Both the position numbers and the translations under genes were made by a program. Of a DNA stretch of 63,607 nt, positions 50,645 through 58,410 are shown piece after piece. The stretch spans positions 1 through 63,607 of the forward strand of contig JBMFOB010000006.1 of assembly GCA_049969855.1 (NCBI GenBank). The letters are read 5' to 3'. Below the pieces are notes generated by a model, which was given only the letters and a program-made list of their open reading frames with translations, searched no databases and had not been told where the DNA came from. Origin of the DNA: Candidatus Bathyarchaeia archaeon. GTDB lineage: Archaea; Thermoproteota; Bathyarchaeia; Bathyarchaeales; Bathycorpusculaceae. Positions within the stretch are counted from its first letter, which is position 1. The number at the start of each line of letters is the position of its first letter.

Positions 50645-51420
50645 CCCCCACCCTCCAATCTACGCTCATGCAAGAATATGCCAAGAAAAGTGAACATGGA
50701 AAAGAAGGCAACTATGCCAAAAGCCGCCAGTAAAGGCGGAGTAAGAGCCGCTGATTCCATTCCTGCACCCCATCGGAATAGGTCAGCGGCAAAAGTTAAA
50801 GGATTAATTGATGCAACACCAGCGTAATATTGTGGCATATAAGCTATTGGATAAAGCGTTGTACTCAGCCTAACTATTAATGCGTCTGTAACACCCATCA
50901 ATATATCAAACCTATCTGAAGATTTTATGCTAACCGCCAAAGTTATACTAAAGCCAGCCACACCAAAGGTGAAAAGAAAAAGCGATAGTAAAGCCACGAG
51001 AAGTTGCAAAACATTTGAAACGCCTATCAAATATAAGACGAACAGCATCATTGGACCAACATACAAGAAACTTCTCAGGCCTCCTCCAATAGACCTTCCA
51101 AGAACCAGTTCCTTGCGGGAAACAGGGACGCTTAGGAGATATTCTATGACGCCATGGTCAGCCTCTTCATAAATGTCATATCCGATGAAAACAGTTGTTG
51201 AATACAGCATTGTTATTATTATTCCAGCAGCATAATAATTGAAGTAGCTGCCGCCAACAGCACTCTGAACGTCTGGGTTAAACATTCTGTTGACGACCAA
51301 GCCGAAAAGGGCTATTTGAGAAACAAACCATATGGCACGCATTATTAAAAGAAACTTGTAACGAAGAAACATTCGAATGTCTCTTTCGGCAACAGTCCAA
51401 ACCTTACGTAAACTTATCAT
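50635..51420 (-). CDS. ABC-2 type permease
   Basis: About 6 TM segments, LYP...INPLT. Confidence 0.85.
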   Translation of the reverse strand: MISLRKVWTVAERDIRMFLRYKFLLIMRAIWFVSQIALFGLVVNRMFNPDVQSAVGGSYFNYYAAGIIITMLYSTTVFIGYDIYEEADHGVIEYLLSVPVSRKELVLGRSIGGGLRSFLYVGPMMLFVLYLIGVSNVLQLLVALLSLFLFTFGVAGFSITLAVSIKSSDRFDILMGVTDALIVRLSTTLYPIAYMPQYYAGVASINPLTFAADLFRWGAGMESAALTPPLLAAFGIVAFFSMFTFLGIFLHERRLEGGGWQ

Positions 51421-52373
51421 TCCCTTTGAGCCTCTTCAATGGTTAAGCCCGTGTAATGCGCAAAAACATCGTCAAGCGACGGTTCACTCATGTGTATGGA
51501 TTTTACTGGCAATTGCGCTTTCATGAAGAACTCTGTTATTTTTGGGAGAACCTCCTCAGCTTGGTTTAAGTAAATTTTCAACTGGTTCTGCGTTATTGCT
51601 AAAACATTCACCACCCGTGGGATTTCCTTCAACTCCGCGAGCACAGCATTAGTAATATCTTTTTCCAAAGCTATTTCCACAACATCCCCGCCTGGAATGC
51701 TATCCTTCAATTTTTTAGGTTCATCGCAGACGAGGAGTTTGCCCTTATGCATTATGGCAACTCTATCCGAAAGCACATCAGCCTCATAAAGCTCATTAGT
51801 TGCAAGCAATATAGTTGACCCTTCATCTCTCAAGTCACGAAGCATATTCCAAATTCTATGTTTGCCAACAATGTCAATCTGTGCTGTTGGCTCATCAGCA
51901 ATGGCTATTTTTGGTCTTTGAATGAGAATTTTGGCTATTTCAACCCTTTTACGCATTCCACCAGAAAAGGTGTGGACGCTCTTAAATCGGTCATTCCACA
52001 ACTCCACTTGCTCTAAAACCCAGCGGACCCTCTTTTTCCGCTCCTCAGCCGATAAACCACAAACTTTTGCGTGCCAATTAAGAATATCCCAAGGAGAATC
52101 AACCCACAAAAGCTTAGGCTCCTGAAACGCCATGCCAATAAGCGTCCTAGCCTTGTCAGGTTCCTTGCTGACATCATATGGACCCACAAAAGCCGCTCCC
52201 TCTGTAGGCTTTATAACAGTTGTTAACATGAGCAAAGTTGTTGTTTTTCCAGCTCCGTTTGGACCGAGAAGCCCAAGGATTTCGCCTTCCTCAACTTCAA
52301 GGTTTAGATGGTCAACTGCCGTGAACTCTCCAAACTTTTTTGTTAGATTAACTATTCGAACTATTGGTGGCAT
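51417..52373 (-). CDS. ABC exporter ATP-binding subunit (DrrA-like)
   Basis: GPNGAGKTT, FSGGM, DEPT, EPSLDDVF. Confidence 0.9.
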   Translation of the reverse strand: MPPIVRIVNLTKKFGEFTAVDHLNLEVEEGEILGLLGPNGAGKTTTLLMLTTVIKPTEGAAFVGPYDVSKEPDKARTLIGMAFQEPKLLWVDSPWDILNWHAKVCGLSAEERKKRVRWVLEQVELWNDRFKSVHTFSGGMRKRVEIAKILIQRPKIAIADEPTAQIDIVGKHRIWNMLRDLRDEGSTILLATNELYEADVLSDRVAIMHKGKLLVCDEPKKLKDSIPGGDVVEIALEKDITNAVLAELKEIPRVVNVLAITQNQLKIYLNQAEEVLPKITEFFMKAQLPVKSIHMSEPSLDDVFAHYTGLTIEEAQRE

Positions 52374-52434
52374 TTTAAACCCAGATGCTGAAGCAAATAG
52401 AATAAACAAGCAAATAGATAAAATTAACTATCAA

Positions 52435-53724
52435 TTATCTAGCAAGCAAATCTAAAGCCGTCCTTTCAGCTTCTCTAATTACGCTTGTCTCATCTAATGT
52501 CTTCACATGCCGATTTTCCATTATAACTTTTCCATCAACAATAACGGTGTCAACATCGCTTCCATGCGTAGAGTAAACAAGGCTCGCAAATACATCATGC
52601 ACTGGTTTTAAATGCGGTTTTGAAAAGTCAATTAGAATCAAATCCGCCCTTTTCCCAATCTCAAGCGAACCAATTTTATCCGTTAACCCTAAGGCTTTGG
52701 CGCCATTTATTGTCGCCATCTTCAAAACTTCGTAAGCAGACAAAACCGTTGGGTCCATGTAGGTGAGTTTTTGAAGCAACGCAGCGAATTTCATGGTTTC
52801 AAACATGTCCAAAGTGTTATTGCTGGCTGCACCATCAGTTCCCAAACACACATTAACGCCCAAACTGGTTAAGTCTTTTATTTTTGCTGCTCCCAAGCCA
52901 AGTTTCATGTTAGCCACTGGAACATGAGCCACATGGACGCCTCTTTTAGAAATGATACGCATATCACTTTTTGATAGGTTTATGCAATGGGCAGCCAAAA
53001 CATAATTCTTAAAAAAGCCTATTCCATCCAAAAATTCCACTTCGCTAAAATCTTCGAACATCGTTTTTGATTCAGCCAAATGCATGTGCACGCCAATTCC
53101 AAGTTCAGAAGCCTTTTCCCTTACTTCCACAAGCAAGTCTCGACTGCAGCTGTAAGCCGCATGAGGTCCAAGTAAGGCTGTTATTCTGCCATCAGCTTGT
53201 CCATTAAATTTTTTGGCAAAATCTACGCTTTCGCTGAACATTTTTCTTCCTAACTCTCTGTTTTCGGCTTCAATTATTCCTTGGGCTAATGCTGCTCTCA
53301 TTCCGCTTTGCTCTACAGCTTTTGCAACCATCTCTTCATGGAAATACATGTCAGCAAAACACGTTGTTCCACCCTTAACCATTTCTAAACAGCCTAAAAG
53401 AGCCCCAACATAAACGTCCTCAGCCTTAAGCTTAGCCTCTAAAGGCCAAATAGTCTCCTTCAACCAAGCGTCTAATGGTTTGTCTTCAGCGATTCCCCGA
53501 AATAGAGTCATGGGCGCGTGAGTGTGACAGTTAATTAAGCCTGGCATGGCAACCTTTCCTTTAGCGTTTATTTTGTTTTCAGCTTTTATGCTGGTTGCAA
53601 GTGAGGCTTTGCCGACGAAAACGATTTTTCCATTTTTTATTGCTATGGCGCCGTCTTCTATGAATTTTTTATCATTCATCGGCAAAATAGTGCATCCATA
53701 AATTAAAATGTCTGCCTTTTCCAA
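52435..53724 (-). CDS. Amidohydrolase (MTA/SAH/5'-deoxyadenosine deaminase family)
   Basis: PGLINCHTH, GPHAAY, HLAES, GTDGAASNN. Confidence 0.88.
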   Translation of the reverse strand: MEKADILIYGCTILPMNDKKFIEDGAIAIKNGKIVFVGKASLATSIKAENKINAKGKVAMPGLINCHTHAPMTLFRGIAEDKPLDAWLKETIWPLEAKLKAEDVYVGALLGCLEMVKGGTTCFADMYFHEEMVAKAVEQSGMRAALAQGIIEAENRELGRKMFSESVDFAKKFNGQADGRITALLGPHAAYSCSRDLLVEVREKASELGIGVHMHLAESKTMFEDFSEVEFLDGIGFFKNYVLAAHCINLSKSDMRIISKRGVHVAHVPVANMKLGLGAAKIKDLTSLGVNVCLGTDGAASNNTLDMFETMKFAALLQKLTYMDPTVLSAYEVLKMATINGAKALGLTDKIGSLEIGKRADLILIDFSKPHLKPVHDVFASLVYSTHGSDVDTVIVDGKVIMENRHVKTLDETSVIREAERTALDLLAR

Positions 53725-53828: not shown

Positions 53829-54242
53829 CTAGAACACTGGTTTTTCTTCGATTTTCTTCAGGAAAGGACGCAAGGTTGGCTGAGGAACATTTTCTTCGCC
53901 TAAACCGCCTTTTGGAAGCCCAGGCGTGCCGATTTTTCTGCATATGAAGTTAAGCGAATCCTCTGTGAAGTTCAGCAGGCTCTGTCCCTCAGATGTTAAC
54001 TTGTAAACTTTCCTCGGTCTTTCGCTGTTCATGTTCCATTCACTTTTTACGTAACCCTTCTTTTCTAAGGCGTTTAGGAGCGGATAAATTGTGCTTGGTC
54101 CAAAATAGACGCCAAAGGTTTTGCGCACTTTAGTTATTATTTGATAGCCATGCATGGGCTGTGAGCTTAGAAACTGTAGCACTATTAGGTCTAGGAGGCC
54201 TTTCATTAATTTGACCTGAACTTCTTTTGAGTTGTTGACCAT
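53829..54242 (-). CDS. PadR family regulator
   Basis: PMHGYQI...IYPLL..LE..GYV...RKVYKLT. Confidence 0.9.
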   Translation of the reverse strand: MVNNSKEVQVKLMKGLLDLIVLQFLSSQPMHGYQIITKVRKTFGVYFGPSTIYPLLNALEKKGYVKSEWNMNSERPRKVYKLTSEGQSLLNFTEDSLNFICRKIGTPGLPKGGLGEENVPQPTLRPFLKKIEEKPVF

Positions 54243-54470
54243 TATTTTATCCTTCCTTTCATGTGTTTTTTTGCTCTACACATATACAATATGTCCTTTT
54301 CTGGACATATCTCAAGACTCTATAAAGCCTAAACAAAAATATAAAGGTTCACACTTACCACAAACATAAAAAAGCATAAAAAAGCATACCAAACTATTCC
54401 AACTCCTACATAACCTAAATAAACCCAAACCCGAACAAGTCCAAAACAGAACACTCTAGAGAGTGAAAAA

Positions 54471-54794
54471 TTGACACAAAACTACAAAAAAGAAATTGTT
54501 CAACGCATAACCAGAAACCTACTAGACATCCAAATACTAAGACTCCTAAGCAAAGAACCAATGTGGGGCTACAAAATAAAAAAACAAGTAGAAACAAACT
54601 ACGAAGTAAAACTAAGACACGGAGCCCTATACCCACTACTAAACGCACTAGAACAAAAAGGCTTCCTAAAAAGCCAAAAACAACAACAAGGAGGAAGAAC
54701 AAGAAAAGTATACACAATAACAGAAAAGGGGAAAGAATACATCGAAGCATACAACGGTATACTAAAAGAACAAATAAGAATGACAGATCTTTAA
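54471..54794 (+). CDS. PadR family regulator
   Basis: PMWGYKI...GALYPLL..LE...RKVYTITEKG. Confidence 0.9.
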   Translation: MTQNYKKEIVQRITRNLLDIQILRLLSKEPMWGYKIKKQVETNYEVKLRHGALYPLLNALEQKGFLKSQKQQQGGRTRKVYTITEKGKEYIEAYNGILKEQIRMTDL

Positions 54795-54851
54795 GCCGTC
54801 TTGCTGAAATTACCATTAGTTTTAAATAGAACAGAACAAGAGAATGAACTC

Positions 54852-55850
54852 ATGAGTTTTAAGAAACACAAAAAAACATCTCAACTGCTTTTGGGAAAAC
54901 TGGAGAAGCGAAGCAGAAAAGGGCTCGAACTCGCAAAGAAAATTGTTTTAACGGAAAAAATAGAATCCCAAAAAGTATACGATGCATTAAAGTATTATAC
55001 TTCAAATTGGAAAATTTTCACTCACCCTGGATTATTTTCAATAGCTTGCGAAGCTGTAGGCGGAAACCCGGAGAATGCCATAAATGTGCAAGCATCCTTA
55101 ATCATGATAACAGCAGCACTCGACATACACGACGATGTCCTTGATAAATCAAAAATAAAGCATGAGAGACTAACTGTTTATGGAAAATTCGGGCATGATA
55201 TAGCACTTCTTTTAGGGAACGCCTTCATTGTGAGCGGTTTTACACTTCTTGGAAAATCCATTGCTAAGTTACCAGCAGATAAGGCCAAAGAAGTCTTTGA
55301 CACTGTTCAGAAGTCGCTTTTTAAAATTGGGAGTGCACATGCTTTAGAATCCGCTCTTAAAGGAAAAATGGATATCGCCCCCAAACAGTACATGCAAATA
55401 TTAGAGATGAAAGCTTTTAGTGCGGAGGCAAGCATGCGACTTGGCGCAATAATAGGCGGGGCAACTGATTATGAAGTTGAATTTTTATCAAAATATGGAA
55501 GAATTTTTGGATTATTGGCAACATTAAGAGAAGAATTCATAGATATCTTCGAAATCCAAGAATTGAAACAACGCTTATCTAACGAATGCCTACCCATACC
55601 AATTCTTTATGCACTTCAAAACGAGAACTCAAAAGAAATTGTTCAAAAGATACTCTTAAAGAAAAAGATTACAGATGCTGATGTTGAACAATTGATTAAC
55701 GTAGTTACCGAAACAAATGAGGTAAAAAAACTTAAAAGGAAAATGAAAGGGTTGGTTAAAACGGCTATTGCTTTAGCATCAAATATTAAGTATCCAAAAC
55801 TAAAAAATCTACTAACTCAGCTAGTTATTGCGGCACTAGAAGACCTATAA
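54852..55850 (+). CDS. Polyprenyl-synthetase-fold protein with degenerate second Asp-rich motif (ComQ-like candidate)
   Basis: First motif LDIHDDVLD, IALLLGN, second motif position REEFID instead of DDxxD, no RRG after the first motif. Confidence 0.8.
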   Translation: MSFKKHKKTSQLLLGKLEKRSRKGLELAKKIVLTEKIESQKVYDALKYYTSNWKIFTHPGLFSIACEAVGGNPENAINVQASLIMITAALDIHDDVLDKSKIKHERLTVYGKFGHDIALLLGNAFIVSGFTLLGKSIAKLPADKAKEVFDTVQKSLFKIGSAHALESALKGKMDIAPKQYMQILEMKAFSAEASMRLGAIIGGATDYEVEFLSKYGRIFGLLATLREEFIDIFEIQELKQRLSNECLPIPILYALQNENSKEIVQKILLKKKITDADVEQLINVVTETNEVKKLKRKMKGLVKTAIALASNIKYPKLKNLLTQLVIAALEDL

Positions 55851-55858
55851 TTGAAATA

Positions 55859-55909
55859 CTAAATATCTGGCCAAACTCGAATAGGGACCTTTCTTTTAGC
55901 CTTCTTCAC
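55859..55909 (-). CDS. 16-aa peptide MKKAKRKVPIRVWPDI, putative prenylated signal peptide precursor
   Basis: GTG start 6 nt after a GAGGGGG Shine-Dalgarno; TATA-like TTAAGTA upstream; convergent with the prenyltransferase-like gene (8 nt gap). Confidence 0.5.
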   Translation of the reverse strand: MKKAKRKVPIRVWPDI

Positions 55910-56038
55910 TTTTGTCCCCCTCTGGAGTATACTTGTTCAACAGTTATACTTAAGATTTGCTGTAGAACACGAATACTGGATGCATTAAGGGCAAAGAATT
56001 ATTACTATTTTAACATAGTTAATTAGAGGGCTGTTTAT

Positions 56039-57265
56039 ATGTCTTGGAAAACTTTGAGACAAGGTCAAGTGTTAAAAGAATTCTTTCCAGCATTTATCAT
56101 TGTAGCGAATACCCTTTCTTGGAACACGCTCGCCTTATCAATTTTTGGCAACTCTGTTAATAGTCTTCCCATATCTCAAATTGAAAGCATAGTTATTTTT
56201 GGCGTTGAATATTTGGCTATCGCACTTTCTGCCATTTTAGGATCAATATTTCTCCCACAAAGAAGGAGAATTTTGCTTAGTATTTGGATTCTTTTTGGAG
56301 CATTAATGTCATCTCTTTTAATTACAATTCCAAACAATGGATTGGCAGTTAACTTAATGTTTTCCTTTTTTTTCGGGGTTGGAATAGGTACTGGGCTTCC
56401 TTCAGCTTTGGCCTATTTTGCGGATGCGACCATTACGGAAAACCGAGGGTTTTTCGGGGGGATTACTTTCTTTTTTGTTGGATTTTTAACAATACTTTTT
56501 GTAGTTACGAGTCTTTTTCTTAATAATATTATGAATGTTTTAATGATAAGTTTATGGAGAATTATGGGGTTAATCTTGTTTTTCTTCACATCTAAGCACG
56601 AGAAAGCTTGCTCTGAACGCGAACCTTCATATTTAGACGTTTTGAGCGAAAAAGAGCTGATTTTATATCTTGTGCCATGGGTGATGTTCTGTCTTGTAAA
56701 TTACATGGAGGCGCCATTAATAGCAAATAAAATTAGCGATTTGTATGGTAAGGAAGCATATGCGTTGATGGGTTTTATTGAAGTTGCCTTAGCTGGATTA
56801 TTTGCCTTGGTAGGCGGCATAATTGCTGATTATTCTGGTAGAAAAAGAACCATAATCATAGGCTTTGTCATTTTGGGTGTGGAATACGCCATATTAAGTC
56901 TTTTATATGAAATACCCGTTTCATGGTACATTTATACAGCTTTCGATAGCATTGCTTTAGGGATGTTTGCATCGGCTTTCTTCATGACCTTATGGGGAGA
57001 CCTTGCAGGAAATTATGCTAAAGAGAAGTTTTACACTGTGGGAGGGCTTCCTTATCTTCTTGCCAGTTTCTTGTCTATATTAGTTAAACCTTATGTGGAA
57101 ATAATCCCGTTAGGCATGGCTTTCTCTTTGGCTAGCTTTTTCTTGTTTTTGGCTGTTATTCCATTGATGTTTGCTCCTGAGACTTTGCCTGAGAAAAAGC
57201 TTAGGGAGAGGGAGCTTAGGCAGTATATTGAGAAGGCTAAGAAGATTAAGGAAAAATACGCTTAG
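56039..57265 (+). CDS. MFS-fold membrane protein (transporter or receptor)
   Basis: About 12 TM segments, GIIADYSGRK motif A, PETL followed by a charged tail. Confidence 0.85.
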   Translation: MSWKTLRQGQVLKEFFPAFIIVANTLSWNTLALSIFGNSVNSLPISQIESIVIFGVEYLAIALSAILGSIFLPQRRRILLSIWILFGALMSSLLITIPNNGLAVNLMFSFFFGVGIGTGLPSALAYFADATITENRGFFGGITFFFVGFLTILFVVTSLFLNNIMNVLMISLWRIMGLILFFFTSKHEKACSEREPSYLDVLSEKELILYLVPWVMFCLVNYMEAPLIANKISDLYGKEAYALMGFIEVALAGLFALVGGIIADYSGRKRTIIIGFVILGVEYAILSLLYEIPVSWYIYTAFDSIALGMFASAFFMTLWGDLAGNYAKEKFYTVGGLPYLLASFLSILVKPYVEIIPLGMAFSLASFFLFLAVIPLMFAPETLPEKKLRERELRQYIEKAKKIKEKYA

Positions 57266-57285: not shown

Positions 57286-58410
57286 GTGTTCTTTCATGTT
57301 GTGCTGACGAGCGAGTGTAATTTGCAGTGTCGATATTGTTTTGGCGAGGCTTTGGAGGATTTTGATTCTGGCTTTCATGGTTTGGATGTTGATTATTCCT
57401 TGCCTAAACGGATGAGTTATAATGTTGGTTTGTTGGATAGGTTTTGTAGGCGTGATGCGGATTGTGTTTTGATTTTTTATGGCGGCGAACCATTGCTCTG
57501 TTTGGACGATATTAAGAACATTGTTGACAATGTTAAGGCTAAACATTTTATTGTTCAAACGAATGGTTTGCTTCTTGGTCGGTTAGAACCAGAATATGTT
57601 AACCGTTTCCGCACAATACTTGTTTCCATAGATGGCGACGAAGCCTTAACGGATTTTTACAGGGGTCACGGCACTTTCAGAAAGGTTGTTGAAAATTTGA
57701 GGTTAATTAAGCATAATGGTTTTAGGGGCGAAGTTATTGCGCGGATGACTGTTATGGAGCAAACGGACATTTACAAGCAGGTTAGGTGGCTGCTGGAAAA
57801 CGGTGAGTTTCCATTTTCTTCTATTCATTGGCAACTTAACGCTGGATTTTGGTCAAAAGATTTTGAACGCCGCGATTTCAAAAGGTGGAGTGAGGAAAAT
57901 TATAATCCTGGAATCCGTAAACTAGTCAAGTTTTGGGTTGACAGCATGGAAAAAAGTGGGATTGTTTTTAGGCTTTACCCATTCCTCGGAGTTGCTCGAT
58001 CGCTTCTATTAGGCGAAGAGGAAAGTCTTCTCAGATGCGGCGCTGGATGGATAAACTATGCCATACAAACTGATGGTTACATTGTTCCATGTCCAAGCAT
58101 GTGGGGAATGAAAGACTACTATTTGGGGCATATCAGCAATGCTGACCCGTTAAGTTTAAAGAAGGTTTTTGTTGGTGAACCATGCACGAAATGCGAAATT
58201 TTCAACTTGTGCGGGGGAAGATGCCTCTATGCGAATATCACCAAGCGTTGGAAAGCATCTGCATATAACCTAGTTTGCGAAACTGTGAAAAATCTAATAG
58301 AAGCCATACACACTGAAACGCCAAGGATACAGGAGCTTATTAAGGAAAAGAAAATTCGGCTGGAAGACTTTGAATTTATGAAGTACAACGGTTGCGAAAT
58401 AATCCCATAA
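57286..58410 (+). CDS. Radical SAM / SPASM protein (TIGR04084-like)
   Basis: CNLQCRYC, YGGEP, QTNG, and SPASM cysteines C..C...CGGRC. Confidence 0.88.
   Translation: MFFHVVLTSECNLQCRYCFGEALEDFDSGFHGLDVDYSLPKRMSYNVGLLDRFCRRDADCVLIFYGGEPLLCLDDIKNIVDNVKAKHFIVQTNGLLLGRLEPEYVNRFRTILVSIDGDEALTDFYRGHGTFRKVVENLRLIKHNGFRGEVIARMTVMEQTDIYKQVRWLLENGEFPFSSIHWQLNAGFWSKDFERRDFKRWSEENYNPGIRKLVKFWVDSMEKSGIVFRLYPFLGVARSLLLGEEESLLRCGAGWINYAIQTDGYIVPCPSMWGMKDYYLGHISNADPLSLKKVFVGEPCTKCEIFNLCGGRCLYANITKRWKASAYNLVCETVKNLIEAIHTETPRIQELIKEKKIRLEDFEFMKYNGCEIIP

Follow-up and report, generated by a model that had tools for sequence, protein, structure and literature searches.

A conserved micropeptide gene beside a repurposed isoprenyl-diphosphate-synthase homologue in Bathyarchaeia, with a candidate role in peptide lipidation

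Results

Organisation of the locus

The window, a 63,607-nucleotide stretch of a Candidatus Bathyarchaeia archaeon contig (JBMFOB010000006.1), was analysed computationally. We focused on a group of genes and signals towards its end. These are listed below.

53829-54242, minus strand: PadR-family regulator 1 (PadR1), 137 aa (Pfam PadR, 69.7 bits)
54471-54794, plus strand: PadR-family regulator 2 (PadR2), 107 aa, divergent from PadR1 (Pfam PadR, 75.2 bits)
54852-55850, plus strand: trans-isoprenyl-diphosphate-synthase (IDS)-like protein, 332 aa, apparently repurposed (Pfam polyprenyl_synt fold, 73 bits)
55859-55909, minus strand: micropeptide gene, 16 aa, GTG-MKKAKRKVPIRVWPDI-TAG (locus-wide conservation and synonymous codon variation)
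55916-55922, minus strand: Shine-Dalgarno-like GAGGGGG, 6 nt upstream of the micropeptide GTG start
55926-55977, no strand: imperfect 52-bp palindrome centred on CTTAAG (repeat search; 29-nt arms, 76% complementary)
56039-57265, plus strand: MFS transporter, 408 aa, 12 helices, with motif-A-like GGIIADYSGRKR (Pfam MFS_1, 32.3 bits, and AF2 fold)
57286-58410, plus strand: radical SAM/SPASM protein, TIGR04084 (318 bits against a cut-off of 225)

An earlier sequence-only reading had placed a PadR pair, a polyprenyl_synt-fold protein, a 16-aa ORF and an MFS-fold protein here, and all lie where it put them. The strong Shine-Dalgarno (SD) sequence that it gave the small ORF is also present, as is a Trp four residues from the C-terminal end of the peptide. 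The micropeptide gene converges on the IDS-like gene, with 8 nt to the stop codon of the latter, and diverges from the MFS gene. Between 51.4 and 59.7 kb, the ORFs encode an ABC ATPase, an amidohydrolase, the two PadR proteins, the IDS-like, MFS and radical SAM proteins and an SPFH protein. None of these ORFs encodes a ComP/ComA-like sensor kinase or response regulator. No Rfam match was obtained for 55700-56200 at E ≤ 1. Similarly, no terminator was detected in 55700-56100, by a bacterial-type scan that carries little weight for archaea.

The micropeptide gene is conserved across loci

Loci were gathered with patterns that included the REEFID motif of the IDS-like protein. Small ORFs were then counted with a fixed regular expression, which builds in part of the apparent invariance of the Pro and Arg. 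An ORF with a basic head, a P-[VI]-R core and a short hydrophobic tail, antisense between the IDS-like and MFS genes, was found at 70 of 81 genome loci. A like ORF occupied the same place and strand at 65 of 72 evaluable metagenome loci. In contrast, the expression matched only 17 of 2995 control windows of 200 nt from the same loci, which rules out a chance ORF. Nine of the 11 missed genome loci carry relaxed variants of the ORF; the other two have no IDS-MFS arrangement. A stricter signature matched four times in the whole 1.28-Mb genome, and one match was the window ORF.

The ORFs also vary as coding sequences do. All synonymous codons are used for both the peptide Pro (CCA 38, CCT 15, CCG 11, CCC 5) and the peptide Arg (CGA 23, AGA 22, AGG 11, CGG 8, CGT 4, CGC 1), and differences between the small ORFs of close relatives fall mostly at third codon positions. 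The start is ATG in 60 of 69 ORFs. Upstream of 66 of the 70 lies an SD-like tetramer, compared with 15% of random positions; the count for the ORFs is somewhat inflated because the choice of start favoured an SD. The predicted peptides of the genome loci are leaderless and 12-21 aa long. Each opens with a poly-Lys/Arg head, continues with the P-[V/I]-R core and ends in a hydrophobic or aromatic tail of 3-9 residues. The peptides have no match in a 15-billion-protein collection, in Pfam or in NCBIfam.

Linkage to the neighbours is tight. In many loci only 3 nt separate the end of the small ORF from the IDS-like stop codon, and at 77 of 80 loci the IDS-like gene is followed by a co-directional MFS gene. 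Where genomes have several copies, the paralogous IDS-like/MFS cassettes have peptides of their own. Carrier contigs include some labelled Hadarchaeota, Hodarchaeaceae, Hydrothermarchaeota and Methanobacteriota. The earlier expectation that similar basic-headed ORFs would lie beside homologues of the enzyme is borne out, in a fixed place and on a fixed strand at more than a hundred loci. From these comparisons, we conclude that the micropeptide gene is real, that its amino-acid sequence is conserved and that it is linked to the genes for the IDS-like and MFS proteins.

The IDS-like protein has lost the basic residues of the canonical isopentenyl diphosphate site

The AF2 model of the IDS-like protein (pLDDT 93.6) most resembles the archaeal geranylgeranyl diphosphate synthase (GGPPS) 1wy0 among PDB entries (Foldseek TM 0.81). 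Chains of the indole prenyltransferase Ord1 (9v4g-j) matched at TM 0.66-0.75, and the two kinds of active site, GGPPS-like and Ord1-like, could not be told apart by the fold search. Likenesses to canonical archaeal GGPPS such as 1wy0 include the fold, the FARM motif and a KT-type Lys, and a homodimer-type architecture is expected. The first motif reads IHDDVLD, with the FARM DDVLD kept; D94, D95, D98 and K103 are invariant among 60 IDS-like sequences.

Elsewhere the protein departs from the canonical pattern. The genome has a canonical GGPPS at another site (G000:C3:11184-11960), with 17% identity to the IDS-like protein. Against this paralog, GGKRWRP becomes NWKIFTHP, RRG becomes KHE and DDILD becomes EEFID. 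The last two motifs align column for column, so the second motif is acid-conserving and not simply lost. With this nuance, the sequence-only reading was right that only the first DDxxD is retained, that REEFID stands at the second and that RRG is absent. Across the family this motif reads [E/D/N][E/D]xxD with an invariant Arg in front (R-[E/D/N]-[E/D]-F-x-D); the preceding residue is Arg and not Gln, and Thr, Ser, Leu or Phe lies one turn upstream.

The best NCBIfam score was 105.9 bits against a cut-off of 468, far under every equivalog cut-off. No ComQ model matched in Pfam or NCBIfam at E ≤ 0.01, and the best sequence and HMM matches were archaeal GGPPS/IdsA. A canonical chain-elongating trans-IDS (GGPPS or FPPS) was rejected as an assignment, since GGKRxR, RRG and the second DDxxD are all replaced and the score is below curated cut-offs. 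As the basic residues of the isopentenyl diphosphate (IPP) site are gone and a canonical GGPPS is encoded elsewhere, the protein is, judged by its motifs, not an ordinary chain-elongating synthase. This agrees with the earlier proposal.

The peptide tail is variable and often lacks Trp

The sequence-only reading took the near-terminal Trp as the defining target of the enzyme. The wider family does not bear this out. Of the 69 unique peptides from genome loci, 30 have a Trp and 39 do not; of the 59 from metagenome loci, 10 have one. No aromatic residue of any kind is present in the tails of 17 of the 69, and Cys is found in none. The tail position accepts W, F, Y, L, I and M. In the nearest relatives of the window, VWPDI is replaced by VFPDI (L103) or ALPDI (L003); hence, Trp-specific chemistry cannot be the conserved function of this clade, most members of which have lost the residue. 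Tails are nearly all Trp-bearing in the basal clades and in one large clade. Many are of the GW type, such as AGGWA, TGGWY and SMGWW, while some are rich in Arg and Trp (FWWR, FWNWR). Enzymes whose peptides lack Trp have bulkier pocket residues (Phe for Ala at position 90, Phe for Leu at 125 and at 62), an association that is only suggestive because it tracks clade structure.

A complex model places the peptide in the former acceptor site

The complex was modelled for the enzyme and peptide of locus L050, rather than for the window's own pair, and as a complex free of prenyl donor. The L050 peptide was used in its natural 31-aa reading, of which the first 12 residues are probably not peptide. 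The pair scored an ipSAE of 0.65, against 0.02 for the best of three controls. Of 80 solved complexes, 58 attain the mark for this score, as do 2 of 110 mismatched pairs; the mark is only roughly valid here because the alignment was self-made. At least 71% of contacts agreed between runs, with a partner pLDDT of at least 52. On the peptide side, contacts involve K14 and K17-W26. On the enzyme side they involve residues beside an invariant Trp, D89, K101, the REEFID helix (221-231) and the C-terminal residues 322-330. The modelled peptide sets its K-P-I-R core against the REEFID helix, which is peculiar to the family, and against the LEDL C-terminus.

The model supports binding of the micropeptide at the former acceptor site of the IDS-like enzyme. 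We consider that the gene probably encodes a peptide bound by this enzyme, which may in turn lipidate it. The same predicted binding would also suit a peptide that is never modified, acting as a plug, activator or small subunit in the former IPP site. Such a ligand might control the fate of an allylic diphosphate, for example its hydrolysis, cyclisation or transfer to another acceptor. Tolerance of W, F, Y, L, I and M in the tail suggests a hydrophobic contact and not a nucleophile. Furthermore, the conserved part of the peptide is the P-x-R core, modelled against the acidic motifs peculiar to the enzyme, and the pocket differences noted above point the same way, with the same phylogenetic confounding. 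However, we know of no 12-21-aa subunit of any trans-IDS, an invariant FARM motif shows no more than the importance of diphosphate binding, and this reading gives no reason for the link to the MFS protein. We regard an unmodified ligand as possible, though not probable.

Transporter, promoter region and other neighbours

The AF2 model of the MFS protein (pLDDT 93.5) matched PfHT1, VMAT2 and SV2A in Foldseek (TM 0.63-0.75). Motif A (GxxxD-R/K-xGR-R/K) is represented by a conserved GGxLADxxGRKR. The Pfam MFS_1 score is slightly below the 33.4-bit cut-off. By its predicted structure and motif A, the 56039-57265 protein has the twelve-helix fold of the MFS superfamily.

The palindrome between the micropeptide and MFS genes contains TGTTCAACA and TGTAGAACA boxes flanked by (G)TATAC and AATAC, and the region is conserved among 57 aligned spacers. 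It is likely to be a shared divergent promoter-operator for the two genes. This arrangement would also fit a peptide that is MFS cargo, a regulatory micro-subunit of the transporter or a lone cationic membrane-active peptide, with the IDS-like protein a mere syntenic neighbour. Near-constant presence of the MFS gene is in keeping with this, and the Arg/Trp-rich tails resemble cationic antimicrobial peptides. Conversely, the complex model prefers the IDS-like protein as partner, the small ORF abuts the IDS-like stop codon, and the acidic motifs specific to the enzyme would have no explanation. A peptide that serves the transporter, or acts alone, is thus improbable.

PadR proteins regulate efflux pumps in systems such as LmrR-LmrCD. 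The locus is similar in that PadR-family genes adjoin a transporter gene whose promoter region is palindromic. Unlike in pumps of that type, the PadR pair occurs upstream in only about half of the loci (37 of the 71 with enough upstream sequence), and the binding site is putative. The palindrome core, TGTWSWACA, is absent from the PadR1-PadR2 intergenic region. It has five matches in the window, a number reached by 8 of 100 shuffles. Control by PadR is offered tentatively, since the core is absent between the PadR genes and five matches are not clearly above chance. The proposal that the PadR proteins are the output of the system fares poorly given their patchy presence.

The TIGR04084 gene adjoins the cassette at 49 of 66 judgeable loci. 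It is single-copy and occurs in 164 of 301 genomes of the class, some of them from families in which the cassette is missing. Peptides encoded next to it have Trp tails no more often (16 of 44) than the others (14 of 25). Its wider distribution, the lack of Cys in the peptides and the lack of any Trp-tail excess led us to reject an obligate peptide maturase. The radical SAM gene is a frequent neighbour and probably not part of the module. The lack of Cys counts against thioethers; C-C crosslinks on aromatic residues may still occur.

The cassette is analogous to ComQ/ComX

Known trans-IDS-like peptide prenyltransferases offer the closest comparison. ComQ, PalQ and StheQ are reported to attach prenyl groups to a Trp close to the C-terminus of their peptides, PalQ favouring GW/GGW ends (PMC13290415; bioRxiv 10.64898/2026.08.29.745113). 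All characterised enzymes of this kind are reported to need Trp, and a Gln just upstream of the second motif is considered central to its recognition (PMC13290415). In ComQ-type enzymes the altered second motif, or pseudo-SARM, is described as NDxxx, with a conserved Gln shortly before it (bioRxiv 10.64898/2026.08.29.745113; PMC13290415). The Trp is given as third from the C-terminus in ComX168 and second in StheX (PMC13731918; bioRxiv 10.64898/2026.08.29.745113).

ComQ/ComX of Bacillus subtilis and StheQ/StheX of Sphaerobacter thermophilus share with the archaeal locus an all-alpha trans-IDS fold, an intact first DDxxD, an altered second motif and an adjacent peptide gene. The differences are several. 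NDxxx after Gln in ComQ and StheQ contrasts with [E/D/N][E/D]xxD after Arg. ComX-type precursors are 55-73 aa with a leader and a conserved Trp, whereas the archaeal peptides are 12-21 aa and leaderless, and their Trp is not conserved. The ComQ-type precursor gene is co-directional with the enzyme gene, while the archaeal gene is convergent. In addition, the ComQXPA locus has ComP/ComA, unlike ours. PalQ of Paenibacillus alvei is likewise trans-IDS-like and acts at or near the terminus of PalX, and G-W recurs in many archaeal tails. Nevertheless, PalX has an NHLP leader, and PalQ and Ord1 are described as sharing a Gln-centred Trp-recognition network that the archaeal enzyme lacks (PMC13290415). 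Ord1, despite its fold match, is reported to act on free Trp (PMC10853753).

The sequence-only reading had proposed a ComQ/ComX-like cassette. The fold, first DDxxD and adjacent peptide gene stand; the NDxxx/Gln signature, Trp conservation, peptide length, leader, gene orientation and ComP/ComA do not. Hence, on present comparison, the best reading is that the cassette is analogous to ComQ/ComX and not a member of that family. A literature search that covered ComQ/ComX in archaea, TIGR04084/AF0577, polyprenyl or RiPP work on Bathyarchaeota, and archaeal micropeptides with prenyltransferases turned up no account of the cassette.

The strict version of that proposal is quorum sensing by a Trp-prenylated pheromone, with MFS export and PadR readout. 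Enzyme fold and FARM motif agree with it, as do the Trp four residues from the end of the window peptide and the Trp tails of the basal clades and of one large clade. Against these stand loss of Trp from most of the window's own clade, a cluster with no sensor kinase or response regulator, a PadR pair at only 37 of 71 judgeable loci and the missing operator-like motif between the PadR genes. We think such signalling quite unlikely.

Last, a purely cis-regulatory ORF with no trans-acting product (an arrest peptide, a leader peptide, or antisense RNA that tunes the IDS-like gene by convergent transcription into its 3' end) is very unlikely: the tail-to-tail gap of 3-8 nt in many loci means that the two mRNAs should overlap, and Pro/Arg near the stop and a poly-Lys head are features like those of ribosome-stalling peptides, but no sense-strand gene lies downstream to be regulated, the tail varies in length and sequence unlike arrest motifs, and the complex model yields a specific partner.

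Discussion

We tentatively favour an enzyme-micropeptide-transporter cassette in which the peptide is prenylated by the IDS-like enzyme and exported by the MFS protein, with a probability of roughly 0.4. Briefly, a leaderless peptide of 12-21 aa would have a gene and an SD of its own, and one palindromic promoter region would drive this gene in one direction and the MFS gene in the other. The K-P-x-R core of the peptide would dock where canonical enzymes bind IPP, touching the R-E-E-F-x-D helix and the acidic LEDL C-terminus, as in the complex model. The IDS homologue retains an intact Mg/allylic-diphosphate motif, DDxxD. Most likely, an allylic diphosphate would donate its prenyl group to the peptide tail, with Trp as the acceptor in peptides that have one, as in the window. 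The product would be a cationic lipopeptide, exported or flipped by the adjacent MFS protein. Where present, the PadR proteins may regulate the cassette. Judged from sequence, the leaderless peptide, a gene that is convergent rather than in an operon with the enzyme and replacement of Gln by Arg count against prenylation.

A bolder form of this proposal is that the leaderless micro-precursors are a widespread archaeal family lipidated by a repurposed IDS whose second Asp-rich motif reads the P-x-R core. Since many peptides have no Trp, the acceptor would have to be one that trans-IDS-like enzymes are not known to prenylate, for example Arg, Tyr, a terminus or the backbone. We consider this doubtful.

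Bathyarchaeia are abundant, uncultured archaea of sediments and hot springs, and to our knowledge almost nothing is known of their peptide biology. Our analysis adds a gene family of 12-21 aa, overlooked by gene callers and conserved in well over a hundred loci, and pairs it with a specific candidate enzyme partner. Prenylated or not, the cassette is compact and expressible in E. coli. Should prenylation not take place, the peptide would stand as a rare micropeptide that fills the acceptor site of an isoprenoid enzyme. Should it take place, archaea would join Firmicutes and Chloroflexi in having peptides prenylated by trans-IDS-like enzymes, here of a lineage that arose independently and recognises its peptide by a different logic, and the peptide could serve as a minute natural tag for lipidation by enzymes. 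Were Trp-free lipidation also true, the products would be the smallest known ribosomal lipopeptides, the first from archaea and possible membrane-active or signalling molecules of Bathyarchaeia.

Organisation of the locus

All elements of the candidate archaeal ComQ/ComX-like, prenyl-Trp peptide signalling cassette proposed by the sequence-only reading were found where that reading had placed them. The source genome of the window is 1.28 Mb in size and 93% complete. The relevant features are as follows.

53829-54242, minus strand: PadR gene 1, divergent from PadR gene 2
54471-54794, plus strand: PadR gene 2, divergent from PadR gene 1
54852-55850, plus strand: polyprenyl_synt-fold (Pfam, 73 bits) isoprenyl-diphosphate-synthase-like (IDS-like) protein, 332 aa
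55859-55909, minus strand: small open reading frame (sORF), 16 aa, GTG-MKKAKRKVPIRVWPDI-TAG, with GAGGGGG 6 nt 5' of the start
56039-57265, plus strand: MFS protein, a true MFS by model fold and motif A
57286-58410, plus strand: radical SAM/SPASM protein, family TIGR04084

We took 80 loci with relatives of the enzyme from contigs, using one genome per species. An MFS homolog lies downstream of the IDS-like gene, on the same strand, in 77 of the 80. The MFS model (pLDDT 93.5) has 12 helices and motif A; neither these nor the fold hint at a substrate. The PadR pair is upstream of the IDS-like gene in 37 of 71 judgeable loci. We saw no evidence of quorum sensing or of PadR output, both part of the initial proposal. 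The TIGR04084 gene adjoins the cassette in 49 of 66 judgeable loci. It is single-copy, present in 164/301 Bathyarchaeia genomes, and also occurs in cassette-less families (18/44 and 25/53 genomes) and Sulfolobus acidocaldarius. This gene is a frequent neighbour, not an obligate partner. Our literature search for TIGR04084 or AF0577 found no paper on the protein. Enzyme, micropeptide and MFS protein make up the core unit.

An amidohydrolase gene (52435-53724, minus strand) sits beside a gene for a DrrA-type ABC ATPase (51417-52409, minus strand), and more than 10 loci show the pair in synteny with the PadR/IDS-like cluster. The best models for the amidohydrolase, both below cut-off, are N-ethylammeline chlorohydrolase (529 bits) and 5'-deoxyadenosine deaminase (402 bits). 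The latter activity would fit well with a nearby radical SAM gene.

Of 301 Bathyarchaeia genomes sampled, 99 encode the IDS-like enzyme, and its distribution is clade-specific (61/77 in its own family, 16/16 in another, 0/22 and 0/44 in others). Some genomes carry two to four copies. Paralogous cassettes retain the IDS-to-MFS pairing, each with its own antisense peptide, such as MKANNKVIRTGGWY or KLKPPRLFSW. Tandem IDS-like genes occur at relative locus L084 (2618-3511 and 3687-4634) and similarly on contig C31 of genome G120. In both, an antisense peptide and MFS gene follow the second copy only; no separate peptide accompanies the first. Three cassette contigs (L004, L068 and L081) are labelled as Caldiserica, Anaerolineales and Cytophagales MAGs; at 46-61% identity to Bathyarchaeia proteins, they probably come from archaea and were mis-binned.

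The micropeptide gene is conserved

In nearly all loci, the IDS-MFS spacer (roughly 150-250 nt) contains an antisense ORF of 12-21 codons with one design. Briefly, a Lys/Arg-rich head precedes P-[V/I/M]-R and a tail of 3-9 hydrophobic or aromatic residues. A fixed regular expression matched the sORF in 70/81 loci, compared with 17/2995 control windows from those loci. A stricter signature occurs at four places genome-wide, including 55859-55909. Nine of the 11 misses have relaxed variants, for example KPIRVTVWFGGPL, KLVRSMGWW and KPIRPIRSWWM, the last without a canonical start codon. The other two, L080 and L082, have no IDS-to-MFS arrangement at all. Among independent metagenome contigs, the sORF was present in 65 of 72 evaluable loci (n=80, with 8 left out as too short or partial).

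Micropeptide Pro residues use all four codons, and Arg residues use six, from both CGN and AGR boxes. The sORFs of close relatives diverge mainly at third positions; between that of the window and L103, a relative locus, six changes are synonymous and one is a replacement. Selection on the sORF acts at the amino-acid level. ATG serves as start codon for 60 of 69 unique peptides. An SD-like tetramer lies 5' of 66/70 sORFs versus 15% of random positions, a somewhat inflated excess since, where several starts were possible, we preferred those with an SD. No micropeptide matched a Pfam or NCBIfam model, and five that were tested are absent from a 15-billion-protein collection. On these comparisons, the sORF is a real, conserved gene. 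At L059, L063 and L064 the peptide reads NKP[I/L]RPIRSWWM, lies approximately 297 nt into the antisense spacer and has no in-frame ATG, GTG or TTG. This reading may use a non-canonical start codon.

The sORF is convergent with the enzyme gene, their stops being 3-8 nt apart in many loci, and starts about 120-150 nt from the MFS start. The window's spacer contains a 52-bp imperfect palindrome (55926-55977; centre CTTAAG; 29-nt arms, 76% complementary). Its elements are kept across 57 aligned spacers, in the order GTATA-nn-TGTWSWACA, a central TATA-like CTTATAAG, TGTTGAACA-nn-AATACAG and a GTTTTATC box. The palindrome would be a shared divergent promoter-operator of the sORF and MFS gene. Its 9-nt core is absent from the PadR intergenic region, and the count of this core across the window is not clearly above chance. 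A conserved AAAtGTTTTATCt box, about 25 nt beyond the palindrome and upstream of the MFS start (55990-56038 and aligned spacers), may be a second TATA-like element.

Departures of the enzyme from canonical synthases

Among NCBIfam models, IdsA scores highest for the IDS-like protein, with 106 bits where the cut-off is 468. A canonical GGPPS (218 bits) is encoded on a different contig of the same genome. We aligned the two paralogs, which share 17% identity. The first Asp-rich motif (FARM), HDDVLD, is retained. Conversely, GGKRWRP is replaced by NWKIFTHP, RRG by KHE and DDILD by EEFID, the last with Arg immediately before it. Across 60 family members D94, D95, D98, K103 and T108 are invariant; R226, D231 and a C-terminal E-D are nearly so. 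All variation in the second motif stays within [E/D/N][E/D]-F-x-D. Hence, the motif is acid-conserving, not lost. In trans-IDS enzymes, the basic residues replaced here bind the IPP diphosphate. Hence, the allylic-donor site looks intact and the IPP site dismantled. The replaced residues, and the canonical GGPPS elsewhere in the genome, argue against the alternative that the protein is an ordinary chain-elongating synthase.

The AF2 model (pLDDT 93.6) best matched archaeal GGPPS 1wy0 (TM 0.81); the indole prenyltransferase Ord1 was also matched, and fold alone does not separate the two. The cassette enzyme appears to be derived independently from archaeal GGPPS-type enzymes. In one homolog (P0071, 502 aa), roughly 170 extra N-terminal residues duplicate the opening third of the IDS-like domain and bring with them a second IHDDII motif.

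Trp is frequent in the tail but not conserved

Small ORFs with a basic head and near-terminal Trp had been predicted beside homologs of the enzyme. The basic head was borne out in both sets of loci, but only 30 of 69 unique genome-locus peptides have Trp in the tail. An aromatic residue of any kind is found in 52 of the 69 tails and none in 17; Cys is absent from all 69 peptides. We built a tree of 97 enzyme sequences (IQ-TREE, LG+G4, SH-aLRT support only). The outgroup, the genome's own GGPPS, is on a long branch and the root is unsure. Basal lineages and a 32-row clade have nearly all Trp tails (PIRGVWW, PVRFWWR, PVRIWM, AGGWA, TGGWY). Tails in the window's 48-row clade are of several kinds: 9 have Trp, 21 have Phe/Tyr and 17 are aliphatic. 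A relative with 92% identity has the same peptide as the window; at the Trp position a 67% relative has Phe and a 65% sister Leu. Hence, Trp-directed chemistry is plausible for many members, including that of the window. Judged from these tails, it cannot be a conserved requirement in the window's clade, and near-terminal Trp does not hold as the common target.

We compared enzymes of Trp-tail and non-Trp cassettes at alignment positions 56, 62, 80, 88, 90, 121 and 125 (window numbering). The former have smaller residues (A90, L125, L62, A/V121, G/A80) and the latter F90, F125, F62, L121 and Q80, a difference confounded by phylogeny. Position 90, four residues before FARM, is a chain-length-determining site.

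The cassette resembles ComQ/ComX in its outline of working but lacks several features of family membership. According to the review PMC13290415, every characterised trans-IDS-like peptide prenyltransferase depends on Trp, and all have a Gln just before the second motif; this position is Arg in the archaeal enzyme. The G-W endings of archaeal tails recall the GW/GGW preference of PalQ, described in the same review. We found no paper describing this cassette.

A model of the peptide-enzyme complex

The micropeptides are too short for complex modelling. Hence, we used the 31-aa natural reading of the ORF at relative locus L050, whose final 19 residues probably constitute the peptide. The cognate enzyme was supplied as a 49-row alignment. 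The complex scored 0.65 and the best of three controls 0.02. The score mark is reached by 58/80 solved complexes and 2/110 mismatched pairs, and is rough here because our own alignment was used. Contact agreement between runs was at least 71% and partner pLDDT at least 52. Confident partner-side contacts all fall at K14 and K17-W26, inside the real peptide. On the enzyme, contacts lie beside the invariant Trp of the former GGKRxR segment, at D89 and K101 flanking FARM, in the REEFID helix (221-231) and at the conserved LEDL C-terminus (322-330). As modelled, these are exactly the features that distinguish the family from canonical synthases. The StheQ paper reports docking only (bioRxiv 10.64898/2026.08.29.745113), and we found no solved complex of this kind in the literature examined. 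Hence, the model is unlikely to have passed by reproducing a known structure.

Binding of the micropeptide to its cognate enzyme is supported, not shown, by the model. In the best-supported mechanism, the P-x-R core docks in the former IPP site, against the enzyme's C-terminus and its repurposed second motif. The main rival would have the peptide act as a ligand or plug of the enzyme without being modified. Most probably, where the tail offers a nucleophilic aromatic residue, the docked peptide would instead receive a prenyl group on that tail and afterwards be handled by the MFS protein.
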